64,000 nt of DNA from a virus. Its lineage: Duplodnaviria > Caudoviricetes. A program made the position numbers and the translations under genes. This document shows, piece after piece, positions 1,595 through 64,000 of the stretch (its first letter is position 1; every line of letters starts with the position of its first letter). Under the pieces are notes generated by a model, which searched no databases, was not told where the DNA came from, and worked only from the letters and a program-made list of their open reading frames with translations. Location: IMG/VR virus record IMGVR_UViG_3300015050_000931, positions 4,135 through 68,134 of that record; one strand, given 5' to 3'.

Positions 1595-1942
1595 ATGAGT
1601 AACGTAAAACGTATGTACAGGATAGAACAATTTGTAATGACAGGGGTAGTAAATGATATTGTATTAATGGCTGCCATGTCTAATGGTGGTAAGAAATACA
1701 TACCCCTTAAATACATGGCTGACTATGTAGAAACAGAAAGAATAAAGTACCCTACATTAACAGGAGATATATCTGTAAACTTAATTGGAGAAAACCACCT
1801 AACCATTGACAAGGGGGTAGAGAACCTATTAGCCATTACAGAAGTGGAGGTATTGGAGTTAATCCAAGAAGATTCCCCAACCCTAAACAGATACTCAAAC
1901 ACAGGCATAGCCAATGATGATAATAAAGAACTCCTAAATTAA
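1595..1942 (+). CDS. hypothetical phage protein
   Basis: 115-aa ORF with A-rich leader. Confidence 0.65.
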   Translation: MSNVKRMYRIEQFVMTGVVNDIVLMAAMSNGGKKYIPLKYMADYVETERIKYPTLTGDISVNLIGENHLTIDKGVENLLAITEVEVLELIQEDSPTLNRYSNTGIANDDNKELLN

Positions 1943-1965
1943 TTGCACATTATTTTGTACCTTTG
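1943..1965 (+). promoter_or_regulatory. Bacteroidota sigma-A-like promoter upstream of the cassette array
   Basis: TACCTTTG at 1958-1965 matches the TAnnTTTG -7 consensus; TTG at 1943. Confidence 0.5.
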
Positions 1966-1983
1966 AAATGATTGTGTATATTC

Positions 1984-2118
1984 GCATAACGGTTGCAAGT
2001 TTATTTAGTTGCCGAATTTAAAAACAAAATATTATGATAACAGATAAAGATTATTACGAAGCAAAAAAGTTGATTGCAAAATACGAAAGTATGCAATTGA
2101 ATAAACTTGATGTTAGCG
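1984..2118 (-). repeat. attC-like recombination hairpin A (135 bp)
   Basis: GCATAAC(1984)...CAAGTTTATTTAGTTGC / GCAATTGAATAAACTTG...GTTAGCG(2118). On the minus strand it reads CGCTAAC-5nt-GTTTATTC, i.e. the R''-L'' layout. Confidence 0.8.
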
Positions 2119-2273
2119 GTATGTTGGCTATGAGATTTAATAAGTGGATTAGCGAAAACAATTGGAGTGCTAATATCAATGGTAAAGGTTGGTTCAAAGG
2201 TAATAGTAGATTTTTTACAGATGCAGAACTTTGGGGAATGTGGTTAAGTAGCGATGATGTTAATTACCACTAA
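2034..2273 (+). CDS. cassette gene (cassette 3), hypothetical
   Basis: 79-aa ORF; starts inside the attC-A loop; its stop TAA is the TAA of the TAAC core of attC-B. Confidence 0.7.
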   Translation: MITDKDYYEAKKLIAKYESMQLNKLDVSGMLAMRFNKWISENNWSANINGKGWFKGNSRFFTDAELWGMWLSSDDVNYH

Positions 2274-2398
2274 CGAACAGGGCTTTGCGAAGGGCTGATG
2301 GCTTTGCACTTCCGACCCAAACTACTACTGCTGCTTGGCTTTGCAATTGGCTCAAAATTTATTCCGCAGCCAGCCTTTTGCAAAACCGCTTGTTATGT
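2268..2398 (-). repeat. attC-like recombination hairpin B (131 bp)
   Basis: CACTAAC(2268)...GGCTTTGCGAAGGGCTG / CAGCCTTTTGCAAAACC...GTTATGT(2398). Minus strand reads ACATAAC-AAGCG-GTTTTGCA. Confidence 0.8.
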
Positions 2399-2497
2399 GT
2401 AGTTGTGGGTGCTAATTGATGTCGCTGCTATGAAAAACTAAAGTTCGGCTGTATTATTTTTTTTGAAGCTGCGGAGCATGTATTTAAAATTATTAGT

Positions 2498-2788
2498 ATG
2501 AAAAATAAAAAACAAGAAGTAAGAATTGAACAAGAACAATACTTAGAACTTCAAAGATGCTTTAGTGAATTATTAAAGCAATGTACCGGAGTTAAATTTA
2601 AAATAAACCCGGAAGCATGGTACGATAATCAAGAAATAATGCAGCTACTTTTTATTAGTAAAAGAACTGCACAGCATTACAGGGATAGTAAATTAATATC
2701 CTTCTCACAAGTGGGTAACAAAATTTACTATAAAGGTGAAAATATAATTGCATTATTGGAAGGAAATTTTATAAAGAATAAATTTTAA
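2498..2788 (+). CDS. MerR/excisionase-like helix-turn-helix protein (HTH_17-like)
   Basis: YDNQEIMQLLFISKRTAQHYRDSKLISFSQVGNKIYY is typical of Bacteroidota HTH_17 proteins. Confidence 0.75.
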   Translation: MKNKKQEVRIEQEQYLELQRCFSELLKQCTGVKFKINPEAWYDNQEIMQLLFISKRTAQHYRDSKLISFSQVGNKIYYKGENIIALLEGNFIKNKF

Positions 2789-2791
2789 TAC

Positions 2792-3058
2792 ATGAGAAGT
2801 TTACAGCAACTAAGAAACCTATTGCTTGATATTATTCCTGAAATAAGGAGTGGTAAAATAGAAGTAAACAAGGCTAATGCTATTTGTGCAGCGACTAACT
2901 CAATAATAAATTTAACTAAGTTGGAAGTTGATTATTTAGGTTCGCAAGATGATGCGTTCAAGTCTGATTTTATTATTGAGCCTGTTGAGCAAATAGTAAA
3001 GGAGCTGGAAAACAAGCAGAAAGTTCCTTATGAGTTTAATAAAAACTTTAAAGACTAA
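2792..3058 (+). CDS. hypothetical phage protein
   Basis: 88-aa ORF, closely spaced to both neighbours. Confidence 0.65.
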   Translation: MRSLQQLRNLLLDIIPEIRSGKIEVNKANAICAATNSIINLTKLEVDYLGSQDDAFKSDFIIEPVEQIVKELENKQKVPYEFNKNFKD

Positions 3059-3852
3059 TGATTACCTGCAAAGCCTGTAATATAGAAAAAGATACCTCTA
3101 ATTTTTATATAAAAGATAAAAAAACTGGTAGGCTTTCTGGGAAGTGCAAGACTTGTGAAGCGCAAGAAAAAGGCATTAAGGATATTGGAAAACTTTCAGT
3201 ATCAAAAGAGCATCTGAATAACGGGAAAAGAAAGTGCTGCGACTGTAAAATAGTAAAACCAATTACAGAGTTTGTTAAAAACAAAAGTGTGAAAAGTGGG
3301 CATTCAAGCGTTTGTTATGACTGCTCAAAAGAAAGGGTTTATAAATATAGAAGAAACAGCAATAAAGAACTTGGTAGCCATTATTTAAAAAGGTTTGCAA
3401 TATCTAATTACGGTGTAAGGCATGAAGATGTAACTGACGAACTTTTAGAAATTGCAAAGCTGCACATACAAGCTAAAAGAAGCCTGAAACTGAATTTAGA
3501 TGGATTGGAATTTTCAACAATGCAGCAGTTTGCCGCCTATGTAAATAAAAAGTATGGTATTAGTGAACATTGTGTAAAAAAGAGACTTGATACGGGGCAT
3601 ACTGAAAGCGATTGTACTATTCCTGAATTTGACTTTAGAAGTCAATTTAGTTGCAAGTCCAGAGGTAAAGTATTAGTGACTGATATTAATACTGGTGAGA
3701 AAAGAATATTTACATCCCCTAAAAGGGTGATGGACGAAATGAATATAAGTAATGATGTTTTGGGCAGGTGCTTATCCACCGGGGAGATTAGAAAACCTTA
3801 CAATAATTCTAAGAATAAACAAACTTTAAAAATAGAATATTATGCAAACTGA
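3058..3852 (+). CDS. multi-zinc-finger protein with C-terminal NUMOD1-like DNA-binding domain
   Basis: CxxC pairs (CKAC, CKTC, CCDC, CYDC); C-terminal VLVTDINTGEKRIFTS..MDEMNIS resembles NUMOD1/HTH; no clear HNH catalytic motif seen. Confidence 0.55.
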   Translation: MITCKACNIEKDTSNFYIKDKKTGRLSGKCKTCEAQEKGIKDIGKLSVSKEHLNNGKRKCCDCKIVKPITEFVKNKSVKSGHSSVCYDCSKERVYKYRRNSNKELGSHYLKRFAISNYGVRHEDVTDELLEIAKLHIQAKRSLKLNLDGLEFSTMQQFAAYVNKKYGISEHCVKKRLDTGHTESDCTIPEFDFRSQFSCKSRGKVLVTDINTGEKRIFTSPKRVMDEMNISNDVLGRCLSTGEIRKPYNNSKNKQTLKIEYYAN

Positions 3853-4048
3853 AAAGAAAGAATTATCTACCGACCTTAAACTGGTTCGTACTGAATTAAA
3901 GGGTATATTATCAGATGTGAAAGACAGAAAAACTTCACTAAAAAGAGCAAACATTATAATCTATGCCTGCTCCAATATCACCCGTACCATTGTAACGGAA
4001 ATTTATCTTAATCAGATACCGGCTGATGATGAAATTAAAAACAAATGA
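3842..4048 (+). CDS. hypothetical protein, probable paralog of 2792..3058
   Basis: ILSDVKDRKTSLKRANIIIYACSNI resembles IIPEIRSGKIEVNKANAICAATNSI. Confidence 0.55.
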   Translation: MQTEKKELSTDLKLVRTELKGILSDVKDRKTSLKRANIIIYACSNITRTIVTEIYLNQIPADDEIKNK

Positions 4049-4133
4049 TGCTACGAAGCGTAATGTGTGGCTTGGGCAAAAAAAATAATACAGTTATCCG
4101 TCTGCCGCCAAATGGTATGCTGGTAACAATTAC

Positions 4134-4265
4134 ACATAACGGTAGGGCTTGCTGTTCGTTTGGGAATTTGAAAAACAAATGTTTAATAACTTAATAAAGT
4201 TGATATGAATACAAAAGATAAGGCTATGACTGTCAGCCCAAATGACAGCAAACCGATTGTTAGCA
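4134..4265 (-). repeat. attC-like recombination hairpin C (132 bp)
   Basis: ACATAAC(4134)...GCTTGCTGTTCGTTTGGG / CCCAAATGACAGCAAAC...GTTAGCA(4265), with one bulged base. Minus strand reads TGCTAAC-AATCG-GTTTGCTG. Confidence 0.8.
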
Positions 4266-4585
4266 GCAGTACGGTTGTTTCGTGTCCAAACTTTCCATAT
4301 TTCGGGGCTTCTTATCCTGATGCTGGATGTATAGATGGTCAATTATGGGATTTAGATAAATGCAATGATAACGGGCTTTATTCAAGTGGTGATAATCCGC
4401 CTTGCCCGTTCTGCAATACAGAAGCATTTATTGATTACCATACTGAAATTGACGACAAAGAATTGGAAGATATGAATAAAGATGATAGTTTGTCGTCAGA
4501 AGATAGAACGGAAATCCTAAAGTCAAATATGACGAAAGAAGATGCCACAAAGTTAGTCGAAGCCCTGAAATTAAAGTACAGTTAG
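4205..4585 (+). CDS. cassette gene (cassette 1), Cys-rich phage protein
   Basis: 126-aa ORF starting inside the attC-C loop; motif FGASYPDAGCIDGQLWDLD...CPFCN. Confidence 0.75.
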   Translation: MNTKDKAMTVSPNDSKPIVSSSTVVSCPNFPYFGASYPDAGCIDGQLWDLDKCNDNGLYSSGDNPPCPFCNTEAFIDYHTEIDDKELEDMNKDDSLSSEDRTEILKSNMTKEDATKLVEALKLKYS

Positions 4586-4591
4586 TATTGC

Positions 4592-4611
4592 TGCTAACAT
4601 TATGATTAGCG
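4592..4611 (-). other. attI-like simple core site
   Basis: TGCTAAC-attatg-ATTAGCG: two inverted binding boxes with a 6-bp spacer and no hairpin arm, 37 bp before the recombinase start. Confidence 0.6.
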
Positions 4612-4648
4612 AAGTTGATATGATAATCAATATCTTAAATATAAATTT

Positions 4649-5545
4649 ATGACACGATTTGAAGAACTGATAAATAAATTTAAAAGAGAATTACAGCTAA
4701 GAAAATATGCGGATAGTAGTATAAAAACTTATTCAGATTGCTTATGCGTTTTTCTTCGTGCCATGAATGGTAAGCCAAAACCATTACCCATTGAATGTGT
4801 GAAAGATTTTTTACTAACTATTAAAAATACAAATTACCACAAACAATTTACTGCAACTATCCATCATTTTTATAGCTTGGTTTTAAATACGCCTTTATCA
4901 TTAAAAGATATACCATATCCACGTAAGACCGATTATATGCCTGAAATATTTTCAATACAGGAGATTTACAGATTAATAAGTAGCTACGAAAATATTAAAC
5001 ATAGGTGTATTATGCAGTTATTTTATTCCTGTGCTTTAAGGATTGGAGAATTGCCAGTTATTGAATTATCACATATCAATTTTGATAGAAGTATTTTGCG
5101 TGTTAAAAATGCCAAAGGGTTTAAAGATAGAGATGTACCTATACCTGCCGATACCTTGATTTTAATAACATCATACATTGATAAATATAAGCCTATTAAA
5201 TGGCTGTTTGAAGGGCAGTATAAAGAACAGTATTCAGTTCGTTCAATACAACAAATATTTTGGCAAGGAGTAAATCGTATTGGCATTAAAAGGGCTGTCC
5301 GACCACACTCATTAAGGCATAGCAGAGCCGTTCATCTTAAAGAAACAAATGTAGATATAAAAGACATTTCTGATTTTCTTGGGCATTACCATATATCCAC
5401 TACTGCTGACTTTTATTTGAAGTTATCTAAATTTTCTTTGGGCAATAGAATTGCTAATGCAGATACTATTTTAAGCAAATTATCTTTACCGAAAATCACA
5501 TTACCATATGAACAAACATTTAATTTGGTTGCAAACCAATCGTAG
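4649..5545 (+). CDS. tyrosine recombinase, integron-integrase/Xer-like
   Basis: SAM4-like N-terminus (LRKYADSSIKTY); catalytic motifs LRIGE, KGFKDR, HSLRH, LGH, STTADFY. Confidence 0.9.
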   Translation: MTRFEELINKFKRELQLRKYADSSIKTYSDCLCVFLRAMNGKPKPLPIECVKDFLLTIKNTNYHKQFTATIHHFYSLVLNTPLSLKDIPYPRKTDYMPEIFSIQEIYRLISSYENIKHRCIMQLFYSCALRIGELPVIELSHINFDRSILRVKNAKGFKDRDVPIPADTLILITSYIDKYKPIKWLFEGQYKEQYSVRSIQQIFWQGVNRIGIKRAVRPHSLRHSRAVHLKETNVDIKDISDFLGHYHISTTADFYLKLSKFSLGNRIANADTILSKLSLPKITLPYEQTFNLVANQS

Positions 5546-10395: not shown

Positions 10396-12849
10396 TTATT
10401 TTATAACCCTTACTTTAAATGTACCGCTTGCAGGGTCTACTGCCGCCGCCACATTATTATTACTGAATCTTACCGTTACTGTGTTGGCTGCACTTACCCA
10501 TGCGAAGTAAACCACGTTATCAGCACCGCTTACTGAACCGTTTGGCGCACCAAGCATAACCACATCGCCATCGGCTGCACCTGTAACTGTAATGGTAAGG
10601 TCTGTTGATGTTTGGGCTGTTGTGTTTCCGAAATCCAAAGTAGCAGAACCGTTAAGTGTTTTAGATAAAGTATAGGCATAAGTAGCATCTGACAGCGTTA
10701 AGTCTGAACCATCGTAATTTATTGCCCCAGCTTCTTTTACCGTTTGGGATGCAACACCGGATGTAAATTTCAATGGTGCTGTGGATGCTGTTGCTGTACC
10801 TGCTTTAATGTGTAGTACTGCTGTGGGAGATGTTGTGCCTAACCCGGCTCTTCCATTCGTACCATCTAAGTATATAGTAGCACCGGTGTAAGAAGCTGGT
10901 GTAACTGATACATTTGAACCAATGGCAAGAACCCCGTCTTTATCTACTTTCATCTGAACGGCCTGAGTAAAATTACCTGTACCGCTACCAATATTATGCA
11001 CCATTAACTGCCCGTTATAAAACTGAAAACCTGTGGCATAGCCGGTTGTTAATCTTGTCCATGAAGCACCATTAAAGTAAGCGTTATCAGAAATAAAACC
11101 GTTGTTTAAAGCGTAAGATTGATTTAAGAACGTACCTACTCTGTATTGATATGTACTGGTACTATTTGCAGAATTAGTAAGTAATGTGCTGTTAAGTGTT
11201 AATGTACCTGTTATGGTAGGGTTTTCCGAGAACACCAAATTAGTACTTGCCGTACCCGTTGTACCTGTGGCTGATGATAAATACCCTACCTGCGTTGCCG
11301 ATACTGTGCTATGCGTTGGCACTCCGTTGGCATCTGATATTAATGCTCTGTTGGCTGTTATGGCTGCTGCTTCGCTTATTGCTGTACCTGTTGTAGCATA
11401 ATACCCTAACCTGTATTGAGTGCCTGAATTAACTGTACCTGAACCTGCACCGCCGGTGGTTGTGTCGGCATAGGTAAACTCTTTGGTTGAACTATTCCAA
11501 CGTACTGATTTATCGCCTACACCTGATTGAATGTAAGGGGCATAAAGTTTACTATTAATATAAGTTCTTTGGTTTGCTGCTACCGCATCTTGTACAGCGT
11601 AGTAAGGAGATTCTGTTGTATCTCCTGCTTTATCAGTACGGTCTAAAGAGTTTAGGTAAATTCGGTAATTTTCTGTTGTGTTATATTTTCCTGCACCCCA
11701 TCCAACCGCTATATTATTATTGCCAGTGGTATTACCTTCCAATGCTCCCTCCCCGATAGCCGTACTCGAATCTCCAGTGGTATTACCAGTCATAGCATCA
11801 GGCCCTAATGATACGTTACTGCTTCCATTAGTATTATTATGCAATGAACCTGTACCAACAGCAATATTATTTGTTCCTAAATCGTTTGAAAATAAACTTT
11901 CAGAACCTATTGCAATATTAACACCCTCACCATCTGGAGTTGAGCTATATAATGCTCTATTACCAATAGCTATACTAATAGTTGGTGCTATGGGAGTTCT
12001 TAGTGCCTCATAACCAATAGCAATATTATTACCACCTAATATATTTGAAAAAAGAGCCTGATTACCGACCGCTACATTTTGCGTTCCCGATGTATTTGCT
12101 TTTAAAGCAGAATCACCAAAAGCGTTGTTTTTTGTACCCGTTGTATTCGCCAATAAAGCACTTTGCCCAAAGCTGGAATTTCCAGTATTATAGTCAAGAT
12201 AAAAACTTTGTACATTATTCACCTTGCCCATCAGCCCCACCGCATCCGTTGTACCCAAGAAGTTAGTACCTGCTGTTGTGCCAGCGTTGCCGGTTAATGA
12301 CCATCCACTTGAACCACTACCCCCATCCCCATAACCCATTAAATGTACACTTCCACTTGTATCAAACATAAGGTACTTATAAGCTGCATCACTTGTTCTT
12401 GCTATTCCTGTTGATGGTATGGTAAGACGGGCTACATCAGAAGTTTTAAATCCAAAGCCTTGCACTGTTTTTGTCCCTGCATATTGTGGGTCTACTGGAC
12501 TTGTAAATAAACCATTATTGCCACCTATTAACCACGGATTTTGTCCTGATGATGAACCTGCTGGCTGTATTTGTATCCATACTCTGCTTGAATATCCAGT
12601 ACAGGCTCTAAACCAAATAGCAGCTACGTCCCTTGTGTAAATTAATGCCCCACACGAATCAATACCTTTTTGTAAATTGGCAGATGTGGTATCATTATAA
12701 CGGGGCATAAAGGCATTATATTGCCCCATCCACCTACCATCCTGAACCGTATTTGTTGCCGATGCTCTATTTATAATTGGTTGTGCCAACCCCTTAAAAC
12801 ATATTAAGATTATAAATATAAATATGATTACTTTTTTCATGTTATGCAC
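10396..12849 (-). CDS. tail fibre-like trimeric repeat protein with signal-peptide-like N-terminus
   Basis: ~14-aa repeats NxAxGxxALxxNTTG; G/T/S-rich; N-terminus MKKVIIFIFIILICFKGLA-Q. Confidence 0.7.
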   Translation of the reverse strand: MHNMKKVIIFIFIILICFKGLAQPIINRASATNTVQDGRWMGQYNAFMPRYNDTTSANLQKGIDSCGALIYTRDVAAIWFRACTGYSSRVWIQIQPAGSSSGQNPWLIGGNNGLFTSPVDPQYAGTKTVQGFGFKTSDVARLTIPSTGIARTSDAAYKYLMFDTSGSVHLMGYGDGGSGSSGWSLTGNAGTTAGTNFLGTTDAVGLMGKVNNVQSFYLDYNTGNSSFGQSALLANTTGTKNNAFGDSALKANTSGTQNVAVGNQALFSNILGGNNIAIGYEALRTPIAPTISIAIGNRALYSSTPDGEGVNIAIGSESLFSNDLGTNNIAVGTGSLHNNTNGSSNVSLGPDAMTGNTTGDSSTAIGEGALEGNTTGNNNIAVGWGAGKYNTTENYRIYLNSLDRTDKAGDTTESPYYAVQDAVAANQRTYINSKLYAPYIQSGVGDKSVRWNSSTKEFTYADTTTGGAGSGTVNSGTQYRLGYYATTGTAISEAAAITANRALISDANGVPTHSTVSATQVGYLSSATGTTGTASTNLVFSENPTITGTLTLNSTLLTNSANSTSTYQYRVGTFLNQSYALNNGFISDNAYFNGASWTRLTTGYATGFQFYNGQLMVHNIGSGTGNFTQAVQMKVDKDGVLAIGSNVSVTPASYTGATIYLDGTNGRAGLGTTSPTAVLHIKAGTATASTAPLKFTSGVASQTVKEAGAINYDGSDLTLSDATYAYTLSKTLNGSATLDFGNTTAQTSTDLTITVTGAADGDVVMLGAPNGSVSGADNVVYFAWVSAANTVTVRFSNNNVAAAVDPASGTFKVRVIK

Positions 12850-51066: not shown

Positions 51067-51186
51067 GGGGAGTTAGCTCAGTTGGTTAGAGCGATTGTAT
51101 GCGGTAAAGTCCTTTGATAGAGGAAACCTTAAAAAGCTATTAAGGTTCGGTTCAGTAGGTCGGTAGTTCAAGTCTACCACTCTCCA
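51067..51186 (+). tRNA. tRNA-like gene 1 with expanded anticodon domain
   Basis: Acceptor GGGGAGT/ACTCTCC; D arm GCTC-AGTTGGTTA-GAGC; T arm GGTAG-TTCAAGT-CTACC; ~55 nt in place of the 7-nt anticodon loop. Confidence 0.7.
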
Positions 51187-51188
51187 CA

Positions 51189-51296
51189 TGGGTAATAGAA
51201 TAACGGTAGTTCGGCATCCTGTACAGGTCTTTGGCTTTTCTTGGCTTATAAGATAACGGAGTAGATGCAGTGGTGGTTCAATTCCATCTTACCCTA
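51189..51296 (+). tRNA. tRNA-like gene 2 with expanded anticodon domain
   Basis: GGGTAA/TTACCC acceptor; D arm GAAT/GTTC; anticodon stem GCATC/GATGC enclosing 45 nt starting CTGTA; T arm GGTGG-TTCAATT-CCATC. Confidence 0.65.
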
Positions 51297-63801: not shown

Positions 63802-64000
63802 ATTCTGACAACCACCAAATAAATCTTCAATTATTTTCCAGATTATCCACCAATACCCTCCCCATAGAAAGTAAAACAGGTAGTTTATTTACCCATTTTG
63901 GTTACTAAACCCATACTTTGTCATATTTGCCTTATTCTCCTCCTTAAGCCATACCCCTACCACCTAACCCCAGATAGCCCCTAAATACCCCCTTAAAACA

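Follow-up and report, generated by a model that had tools for sequence, protein, structure and literature searches.

The DNA analysed here, referred to as the window, is a stretch of 64,000 nt covering bases 4135–68134 of a 68,134-bp IMG/VR virus record that is rated complete; all coordinates are those of the window. Between positions 1976 and 5545 of its + strand lie three gene cassettes (bodies X, 2112–2274; Y, 2392–4140, 1749 nt; and Z, 4259–4598), each adjoined by a hairpin, followed by an attI-like sequence (4599–4648) and by the gene for a 298-amino-acid (aa) Xer-type tyrosine recombinase (4649–5545; PF00589 and PF13495). We interpret this region, with considerable confidence, as a platform for gene capture that resembles an integron and is carried by a phage, made up of the recombinase, the attI-like site and three hairpin units. 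A unit would begin immediately behind one ..AAC and close with the following ..AAC, giving the units hp0 + X, hp1 + Y and hp2 + Z. In integrons, the R′ and R″ ends of a cassette are complementary in the circular form only, and integrated arrays consequently hold hybrid sites.

The array-distal hairpin site, hp0 (1976–2126), has AAC at 1988, GTT at 2112 and arms at 1996–2019 and 2086–2109. In the hairpin of cassette Y, hp1 (2260–2406), the AAC at 2272 is followed by the 6-nt spacer GAACAG and then by GGCTTTGCG; its stem reads GGCTTTGCGAAGGGCTG.../...CAGCCTTTTGCAAAACC, and GTT stands at 2392. The hairpin of cassette Z, hp2 (4126–4273), has AAC at 4138 and GTT at 4259. With these three as seed members, an nhmmer profile found exactly three sites in the window, at 1983–2123 (E = 6e-6), 2262–2404 (E = 6e-16) and 4128–4272 (E = 2e-22). 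Related loci, each denoted by L and a number, were collected with a profile of homologs, single-protein queries having returned none; others came from an IMG/VR scan for the 15-nt end of cassette Y and a subsequent blastn search, which revealed Y or its ends among hairpins of the same build. Across 390 kb from 29 loci, 91 profile matches lie on the strand of the recombinase gene and one on the opposite strand.

The hairpins form a conserved family with covarying stems. Over 21 aligned sites, the distance from AAC to GTT is conserved at ~117 nt with a mean identity of 56%. The nine pairs of the core inner stem are paired in 76% of cells versus 59% in shuffles (0 of 500 shuffles), with 31 cells altered on both sides versus 12 in shuffles, and their covariation is 0.405, compared to 0.146 in shuffles and at most 0.158 in slid controls. 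A C.A mismatch within the inner stem is conserved in 13 of the 21. RNAalifold predicted no structure on the hairpin alignment because gaps introduced by MAFFT shift the register of the distal stem; the core stem was scored from pairs given by hand. An initial, ungapped scanner, later replaced by the profile search as it missed hp2 and gave false sites, had measured spacers of 1–9 nt (mostly 4–6) on one side of the hairpin and 0–7 nt (mostly 1–3) on the other, and a site density 10 times higher upstream than downstream of the recombinase gene. A direct-repeat 'promoter motif' before X and Z, CATAACGGT...GAATTTnAAAAACAAA, had no counterpart elsewhere in the window and was rejected; the likeness arises because hp0 and hp2 belong to one hairpin family.

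The original prediction held that the two ends of each cassette body are complementary, while the flanks of a single hairpin do not pair. Direct reading confirms both statements. The ends match at 9/10 positions in cassette X (GTTAGCGGTA, 2112–2121, versus TACCACTAAC, 2265–2274; 10/15 over 15 nt), at 13/14 in cassette Y (GTTATGTGTAGTTG, 2392–2405, versus CAATTACACATAAC, 4127–4140) and at 12/13 in cassette Z (GTTAGCAGCAGTA, 4259–4271, versus TATTGCTGCTAAC, 4586–4598), and the flanks of single hairpins match at a mean of 7.2/15 by the initial scanner, like non-cognate pairs. As a signal, the three pairs fared differently. A repeat search extends the Y and Z pairs to 14/15 each. We then compared GTTA-anchored complementary pairs at most 2.5 kb apart in the window with those in 200 dinucleotide shuffles, and counted 30 pairs at 9/10 (38.8 expected), 2 at 12/13 (1.2 expected) and 2 at 13/14 (0.275 expected; 3% of shuffles), the last two both in the cassette stretch. 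Therefore, since 9/10 pairs are no commoner than in shuffles, the X pair alone is at chance level. The window statistics are by themselves only suggestive, and the decisive test is made across loci.

For that test, we assembled 45 unique cassettes from the 29 loci, placed the sites by the hairpin profile without reference to the ends, and compared, for each body, the 15 nt that open with GTT and the 15 nt that close with the following AAC. Cognate ends match at 12.1/15 positions and non-cognate ends at 7.7/15 (Mann–Whitney p = 1.5e-21); a match of at least 12/15 is reached by 33 of 45 cognate pairs, compared to 26 of 1972 non-cognate ones. At the seven variable end positions, the averages are 5.6 matches versus 2.4, and a permutation test on an earlier subset of the cassettes gave 0 of 20000. 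A cassette's start complements its own end and not the other flank of the adjoining hairpin. The consensus is GTT-N4-GCAGT-N3 at the start and N3-ATTGC-N4-AAC at the end, with 25 distinct 4-nt 'addresses' among the ends. The core itself covaries, being GTTG/CAAC in L127 and GTTC/GAAC in L128. The ends are also asymmetric: position 11 is G in 39 of 45 starts and the partner's complement is A in 45 of 45, a fixed G.T on the + strand. No end pair reaches 15/15, because this G faces the A of the partner's complement. The end class of cassette X, GTTAGCGGTA, recurs in cassettes of L140 and L132.

The original prediction also proposed, as a check, to fold the hairpin sites with the ends of each cassette rejoined, and two of the three fold better in that form. 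In place, the hybrid sites have folding energies of −15.6 kcal/mol for hp1 (z = −1.0), −16.0 kcal/mol for hp2 (z = −2.2) and −13.9 kcal/mol for hp0 (z = −2.3). Rejoining the Y ends around hp1 lowers the energy to −24.1 kcal/mol (z = −3.8) and rejoining the Z ends around hp2 lowers it to −26.8 kcal/mol (z = −6.3), while the X ends around hp0 give −14.2 kcal/mol, which is no gain. The better folds of the rejoined sites follow from the complementarity of the ends and hence do not count as independent evidence.

The units also behave as units between genomes. The block hp1 + Y (2281–4141) occurs at 82–98% identity in at least eight unrelated contexts and is the sole part that those loci share with the window. 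Examining ten contexts of Y with unrelated neighbours, we found hp1 (~95% identity) in front of Y in nine, whereas the R″ before hp1 and the hairpin after Y differ in every one; the orientation of Y relative to the hairpin is identical in all ten. Therefore, a constant hp1 between changing outer neighbours identifies the mobile unit as a hairpin plus its downstream body, with breakpoints at AAC|G. A comparison of L159 with L160 leads to the same boundaries. Their recombinases are 100% identical. Their DNA is likewise 100% identical as far as ...GAGTAACG on one side and, on the other, from AACGGGTTGATTAGCG onwards into the recombinase gene. In between, L159 has one unit, with a DNA methylase, and L160 has two others, each with complementary ends. 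No target duplication was seen at the junctions of the Y contexts or of L159/L160. Together, the covarying cognate ends of many cassettes and the unit-wise differences between genomes support the claim that the integrated array consists of hybrid sites. The original prediction is corrected in that each hairpin moves together with the body that follows it on the + strand, and in that the crossover is on the AAC side.

Public sequence data gave a similar picture of cassette Y. Its exact 96-aa first protein is listed in 189 blocks of a public assembly collection, and part of the cassette stretch is present in runs from 15 studies, chiefly of wastewater and other waters. In Logan contigs of four wastewater or aquatic runs from four studies, only ~2281–4143 of the first 10 kb is covered, at 98–99% identity, and the flanks diverge; one contig has the ends of Y around a different 1-kb interior. 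No joint running back or switching strand was found in the Logan contigs of the four runs, which cannot show rare circles or prove that a sequence is absent.

The recombinase gene and the sequence before it complete the platform. The attI-like sequence (..GATTAGCGAAG..ATAATCAAT..) lies between the last ...TAAC and the recombinase ATG. In every locus with upstream DNA (L123, L124, L126, L127 and L128), the last cassette likewise ends in ...YAAC 40–52 nt before the recombinase ATG and is followed by related sequence. This region is conserved between loci and is the right-hand breakpoint of the difference between L159 and L160. In L123, L126, L128 and further samples, assemblies break 50–900 nt upstream of the recombinase gene, as would be expected beside a region whose cassette content varied within populations.

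By its sequence, the recombinase falls within the Xer/IntI branch of tyrosine recombinases. Its scores against NCBIfam models are 164 bits for archaeal XerA (NF040815; cut-off 220), 106 for XerC (TIGR02224; 335) and 104 for XerD (TIGR02225; 330), so it is Xer-like and, being below the cut-offs of these equivalogs, not a member of any of them. The integron models score 105 bits (IntI, TIGR02249; cut-off 265) and 79 bits (PRK15417; 435). Its alignment to XerA (5hxy) is unbroken, while its alignment to IntI4 (2a3v) splits in two, with 32 residues facing 75 in IntI4 and ~43 missing; therefore, the IntI insertion (I2 helix) is absent. We found 445 homologs at E ≤ 1e-20; the best 120 of the 445 are 54–85% identical and mostly ~290 aa long. 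The genome has no other match to PF00589 or to PF07508. In L128, a large serine recombinase of 527 aa directly follows the Xer-like one (1825–3408), which suggests a division of labour between lysogenic integration and cassette handling in that phage.

The mechanism that we propose runs as follows. Recombination would occur at AAC|G (G|TT when read on the minus strand), so that the first and last 15 nt of a cassette body would derive from one site and hence pair together. The adjacent recombinase would do the cutting. Units would leave as circles, in which R″, hairpin and R′ would make up one long folded site, and this site would be used as folded single-stranded DNA, as in integrons. With the crossover on the AAC side and the attI-like site after the last AAC, the canonical integron view is that of the minus strand. 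It shows the recombinase pointing away, then the attI-like site, then cassettes that begin with TTA... and end in an inverse core, the hairpin and G. Relative to the canonical integron direction, the cassette genes run antisense, in the orientation of the recombinase gene; all cassette open reading frames (ORFs) face the attI-like site and that gene.

Several other mechanisms could account for parts of these observations. The strongest of them, though an unlikely one, is that the units resemble Xer modules such as the pdif modules of Acinetobacter, with duplex recombination at short two-arm sites (cassette end, 6-nt centre and hairpin arm) and no single-strand folding. The recombinase is indeed Xer-like and without the IntI insertion, a 4–6-nt spacer by the breakpoint occurs in discrete classes and resembles a central region, and inverted flanking sites are described as a hallmark of pdif modules (PMC7399989). 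A pdif site, however, measures 28 bp and has two related 11-bp arms around a 6-bp centre, whereas the arms on either side of the spacer here are unrelated (..ATTGC-N4-AAC versus GGGCTTTGCG), even though only one recombinase is encoded. Moreover, the variable positions covary between partners 160–2300 nt apart, which argues for base pairing rather than protein recognition; the hairpin has a spacer of a different length on either side; and the AAC side is the sole breakpoint in nine of the ten contexts of Y.

General homologous recombination between similar hairpins, with the recombinase serving as a plain phage integrase, is less probable still. Such shuffling had been proposed for the promoter–stem-loop cassettes of T4-type phages. 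It would be consistent with the short conserved blocks common to the hairpins, with the recombinase being the only one in the genome and with the location of a recombinase homolog within a prophage on a 1.5-Mb contig. Yet hairpins that are only ~56% identical share the same AAC|G breakpoints, both in the otherwise 100% identical genomes and in the contexts of Y, and homologous recombination does not predict complementary cassette ends. The prophage homolog (L159) lies ~5 kb inside and not at the prophage edge, L128 has its large serine recombinase beside the Xer-like one, and in all loci that include upstream DNA the array runs right up to the start of the recombinase gene.

Two further explanations are very improbable. 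That the recombinase flips each cassette back and forth, as an invertible segment in a phase-variation switch, would agree with 15-nt inverted repeats around gene bodies beside a tyrosine recombinase and with weak NCBIfam matches to tyrosine-type DNA invertases (32 bits), but it is contradicted by the constant orientation of Y to its hairpin in the ten contexts, the 91:1 strand bias of the hairpins, the constant G/A asymmetry at position 11, the lack of strand-changing joints in the Logan contigs and a minus strand of the cassettes that holds short broken ORFs only. That the complementarities arose by chance and the hairpins are terminators or RNA elements would fit the weak statistics within the window and the fold of hp1, no better than its shuffles, but it is opposed by the cross-locus p of ~1e-21, the covarying stems, an Rfam search of the region and the window without a match, and the absence of a T-run and of any gene-strand terminator prediction at hp0, hp1 and hp2 (the sole prediction, 4221–4239 inside hp2, is on the opposite strand), which bears out the claim that the hairpins are not terminators. 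A terminal-inverted-repeat transposon or miniature inverted-repeat transposable element was rejected, as the ends differ between cassettes and covary, no target duplication was seen at the junctions and Pfam and PHROGs scans gave no transposase family among the ORFs of Y.

Some observations weigh against the integron-like platform as we have described it. The ends of cassette X match at only 10/15 positions, and in a separate, earlier shuffle test of the sites in place hp1 folded no better than its shuffles (z = +0.4) and hp2 only marginally better (z = −1.8). Without the IntI insertion, the chemistry may differ from that of integron integrases. As the sole recombinase found in the genome, the enzyme might act in integration or dimer resolution, whether in addition to cassette exchange or in place of it. 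The contigs, which cannot show rare forms, contained no circle junction, no empty site and no product of excision.

The remaining two concern the position of the crossover. The hp1 spacer after AAC (2275–2280) is GAACAG in the window, whereas seven other contexts have GTTTGC and L152 has GTTTTGC, so a single crossover at AAC|G is insufficient as an explanation; the variation suggests a second exchange point or a spacer swap. We also saw GGTTGC as the hp1 spacer in one metagenome contig, GAACAG in other hairpins (L149 and L152) and GAACA in one of L137. Likewise, a copy of hp2 stands before a different cassette body in L039 and L147, which means that exchange at the GTT side also occurs.

This second case reveals a further property of the sites. 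The predicted start codon of ORF Z (ATG, 4205) and its 18-codon leader lie in the loop and 3′ arm of hp2 (4205–4261), and the cassette itself contains no start codon. The copy of hp2 in L039/L147 is 93% identical and is fused in frame to the other body (leader at 12620–12680 of L039), which in L039 begins exactly at GTTAGC and has complementary ends of its own, GTTAGCCGCCGTTG and CAATGGCGGCTAAC. Because two unrelated bodies carry this leader in frame, the recombination site supplies the translation start. The predicted start codon of ORF X (ATG, 2034) likewise sits in the loop of hp0. Typical cassettes have their own ATG 30–50 nt after GTT, and a stop codon just before or inside ..TAAC.

Beyond the platform itself, we somewhat favour the view that it represents a second, independent lineage of integron-type gene capture, built from a short Xer-type recombinase without the I2 insertion and long folded hairpins, and carried by phages of Chitinophagaceae and other Bacteroidota. 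As part of the same reading, its sites would be unlike attC, with a 15-bp outer stem that combines a variable 4 + 3-nt 'address' with a fixed G.T, and with loops that can carry a translation start and perhaps a promoter. Our literature search found no paper describing this family of hairpin cassettes and recombinases.

The likeness to integrons, above all to sedentary chromosomal ones, is extensive. Both have a recombinase from the Xer/IntI branch with the insertion site by the 5′ end of its gene, and a one-directional cassette array with one imperfect hairpin per cassette, in which AAC/GTT cores, an unpaired spacer and an inner stem with a conserved mismatch recur. They also share the G|TT crossover, the hybrid sites and cassettes whose first bases complement their own inverse core, and in both what is gained or lost beside the recombinase is a gene together with its site, as in L159 versus L160 and in the nine of ten contexts with hp1 + Y. 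There are also differences. The recombinase here is a phage enzyme without the IntI insertion and below the IntI model cut-off; the outer (R) stem has 15 bp with a fixed G.T, versus 7 bp in integrons; the cassette genes point towards the attI-like site, whereas integron genes point away from attI and are transcribed from a promoter within or close to intI; some hairpin loops supply a start codon; and the carrier is a phage.

Other known systems share fewer of these features. Clusters of attC sites without an integrase (CALINs) have been described in virulent phages, including Polaribacter phage P12002L with a Bacteroidota host (Qi et al. 2023, PMC9892861); canonical attC models served to detect them, no recombinase lay beside them, and Xer is not mentioned. 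Both cases combine attC-type sites with cassettes in phage genomes, and methyltransferase cassettes are common to both, but the arrays described here are linked to a recombinase family of their own that is not IntI. Our hairpin profile found no site in P12002L, which is also without an annotated integrase. The pdif modules likewise place gene modules between inverted recombination sites and employ Xer-type enzymes; they differ in having 28-bp duplex XerC/XerD sites and host enzymes, in place of ~150-nt covarying hairpins and a single recombinase of their own. The attP of CTX-phi provides a precedent, in that XerCD, without the IntI insertion, acts on a folded single-stranded hairpin; that system integrates a whole filamentous phage into dif, with no cassettes and no array.

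Recombination in integrons is held to need the IntI-specific insertion, the I2 helix, acting on folded attC. Here, the full signature of integron exchange (hybrid sites, unit-wise gain and loss, and covarying hairpins) goes with an enzyme that lacks this insertion and is borne by a phage. If a second lineage is indeed involved, the IntI insertion would not be required for cassette recombination at hairpin sites, and phages would trade accessory and anti-defence genes through an integron analogue of their own. Two questions thereby become testable, the origin of single-strand hairpin recombination from Xer enzymes and the need for the insertion, with cassette Y as a ready natural substrate. A third is how Bacteroidota phages exchange small accessory genes, among which methyltransferases, nucleases and a GmrSD-like gene were seen as neighbours.

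The cassettes carry varied cargo. The body of X contains the C-terminal part of a 79-aa ORF (2034–2273) whose stop codon TAA falls within the terminal TAAC; the ORF has no Pfam, PHROG or NCBIfam match. Between its 15-nt complementary ends, Y holds four ORFs on the + strand: one of 96 aa that resembles HTH_17 proteins and excisionases (2498–2788), a second at 2792–3058, a third of HNH/EndoVII-like type with NUMOD1 (3058–3852) and a fourth at 3842–4048. Pfam and PHROGs scans of the four found no transposase family. The third ORF is the largest of Y; its NUMOD1 motif, a DNA-binding one, is characteristic of free-standing homing endonucleases, and the protein may let this very widespread cassette spread in a second way. 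Nested inside Y is an inverted repeat of 17 nt with perfectly matching arms (2449–2465/4077–4093). The Cys-rich ORF of Z encodes 126 aa (4205–4585; PHROG 20542). A homolog of this gene in csAssE-Sib, an unrelated gut phage, is 70% identical over the core and has neither the leader nor the GTTA/TAAC ends; therefore, the ends belong to the cassette and not to the gene.

Cassettes of Y type occur with other interiors. Their ends of ~100 nt (2392–2489 and 4041–4140 in the window; also in L124, L137 and L023) are 89–98% identical, include the 17-nt inverted repeat and enclose quite different cargo (L124, 1.06 kb; L137, 2.3 kb). A 158-nt piece in L072 (3873–4030) is bounded by exact copies of the 15-nt ends of Y, with 128 nt between them, and lies inside a small Cys-rich ORF. 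With this piece, the end pair of Y serves at least three unrelated cargos. Near the left end, a T-run followed by GAAGCTGCGGAGCA recurs in other cassettes (L159, and in shorter form L160) and is perhaps a promoter or terminator module. The cassettes beside Y elsewhere (L148, L149, L150, L154, L156, L157 and L159) are rich in DNA methyltransferases, with up to three N6_N4 methylases in a row, and also include a GmrSD_N protein and HNH/GIY-YIG nucleases. This cargo looks like anti-restriction or selfish genes.

Turning to the genome as a whole, the window has a G+C content of ~33%, and ARAGORN found no tRNA or tmRNA in its 64 kb, including at 51067–51296. In a blastn search against isolated phages, the region was without a relative; the matches were a lysozyme gene and 155 nt of the cassette Z gene (csAssE-Sib) only. 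The nearest genomic homologs of the recombinase (65–66% identity) are on contigs of metagenome-assembled genomes of Sediminibacterium and Ferruginibacter, and an array of hairpin cassettes is also present in Parasediminibacterium paludis. Based on these homologs and this array, the phage host is probably a member of the Chitinophagaceae (Bacteroidota). The genome has inverted terminal repeats of 127 nt that are 99% identical (63874–64000 of the window and 1–127 of the genome, L125), in agreement with its IMG/VR class.

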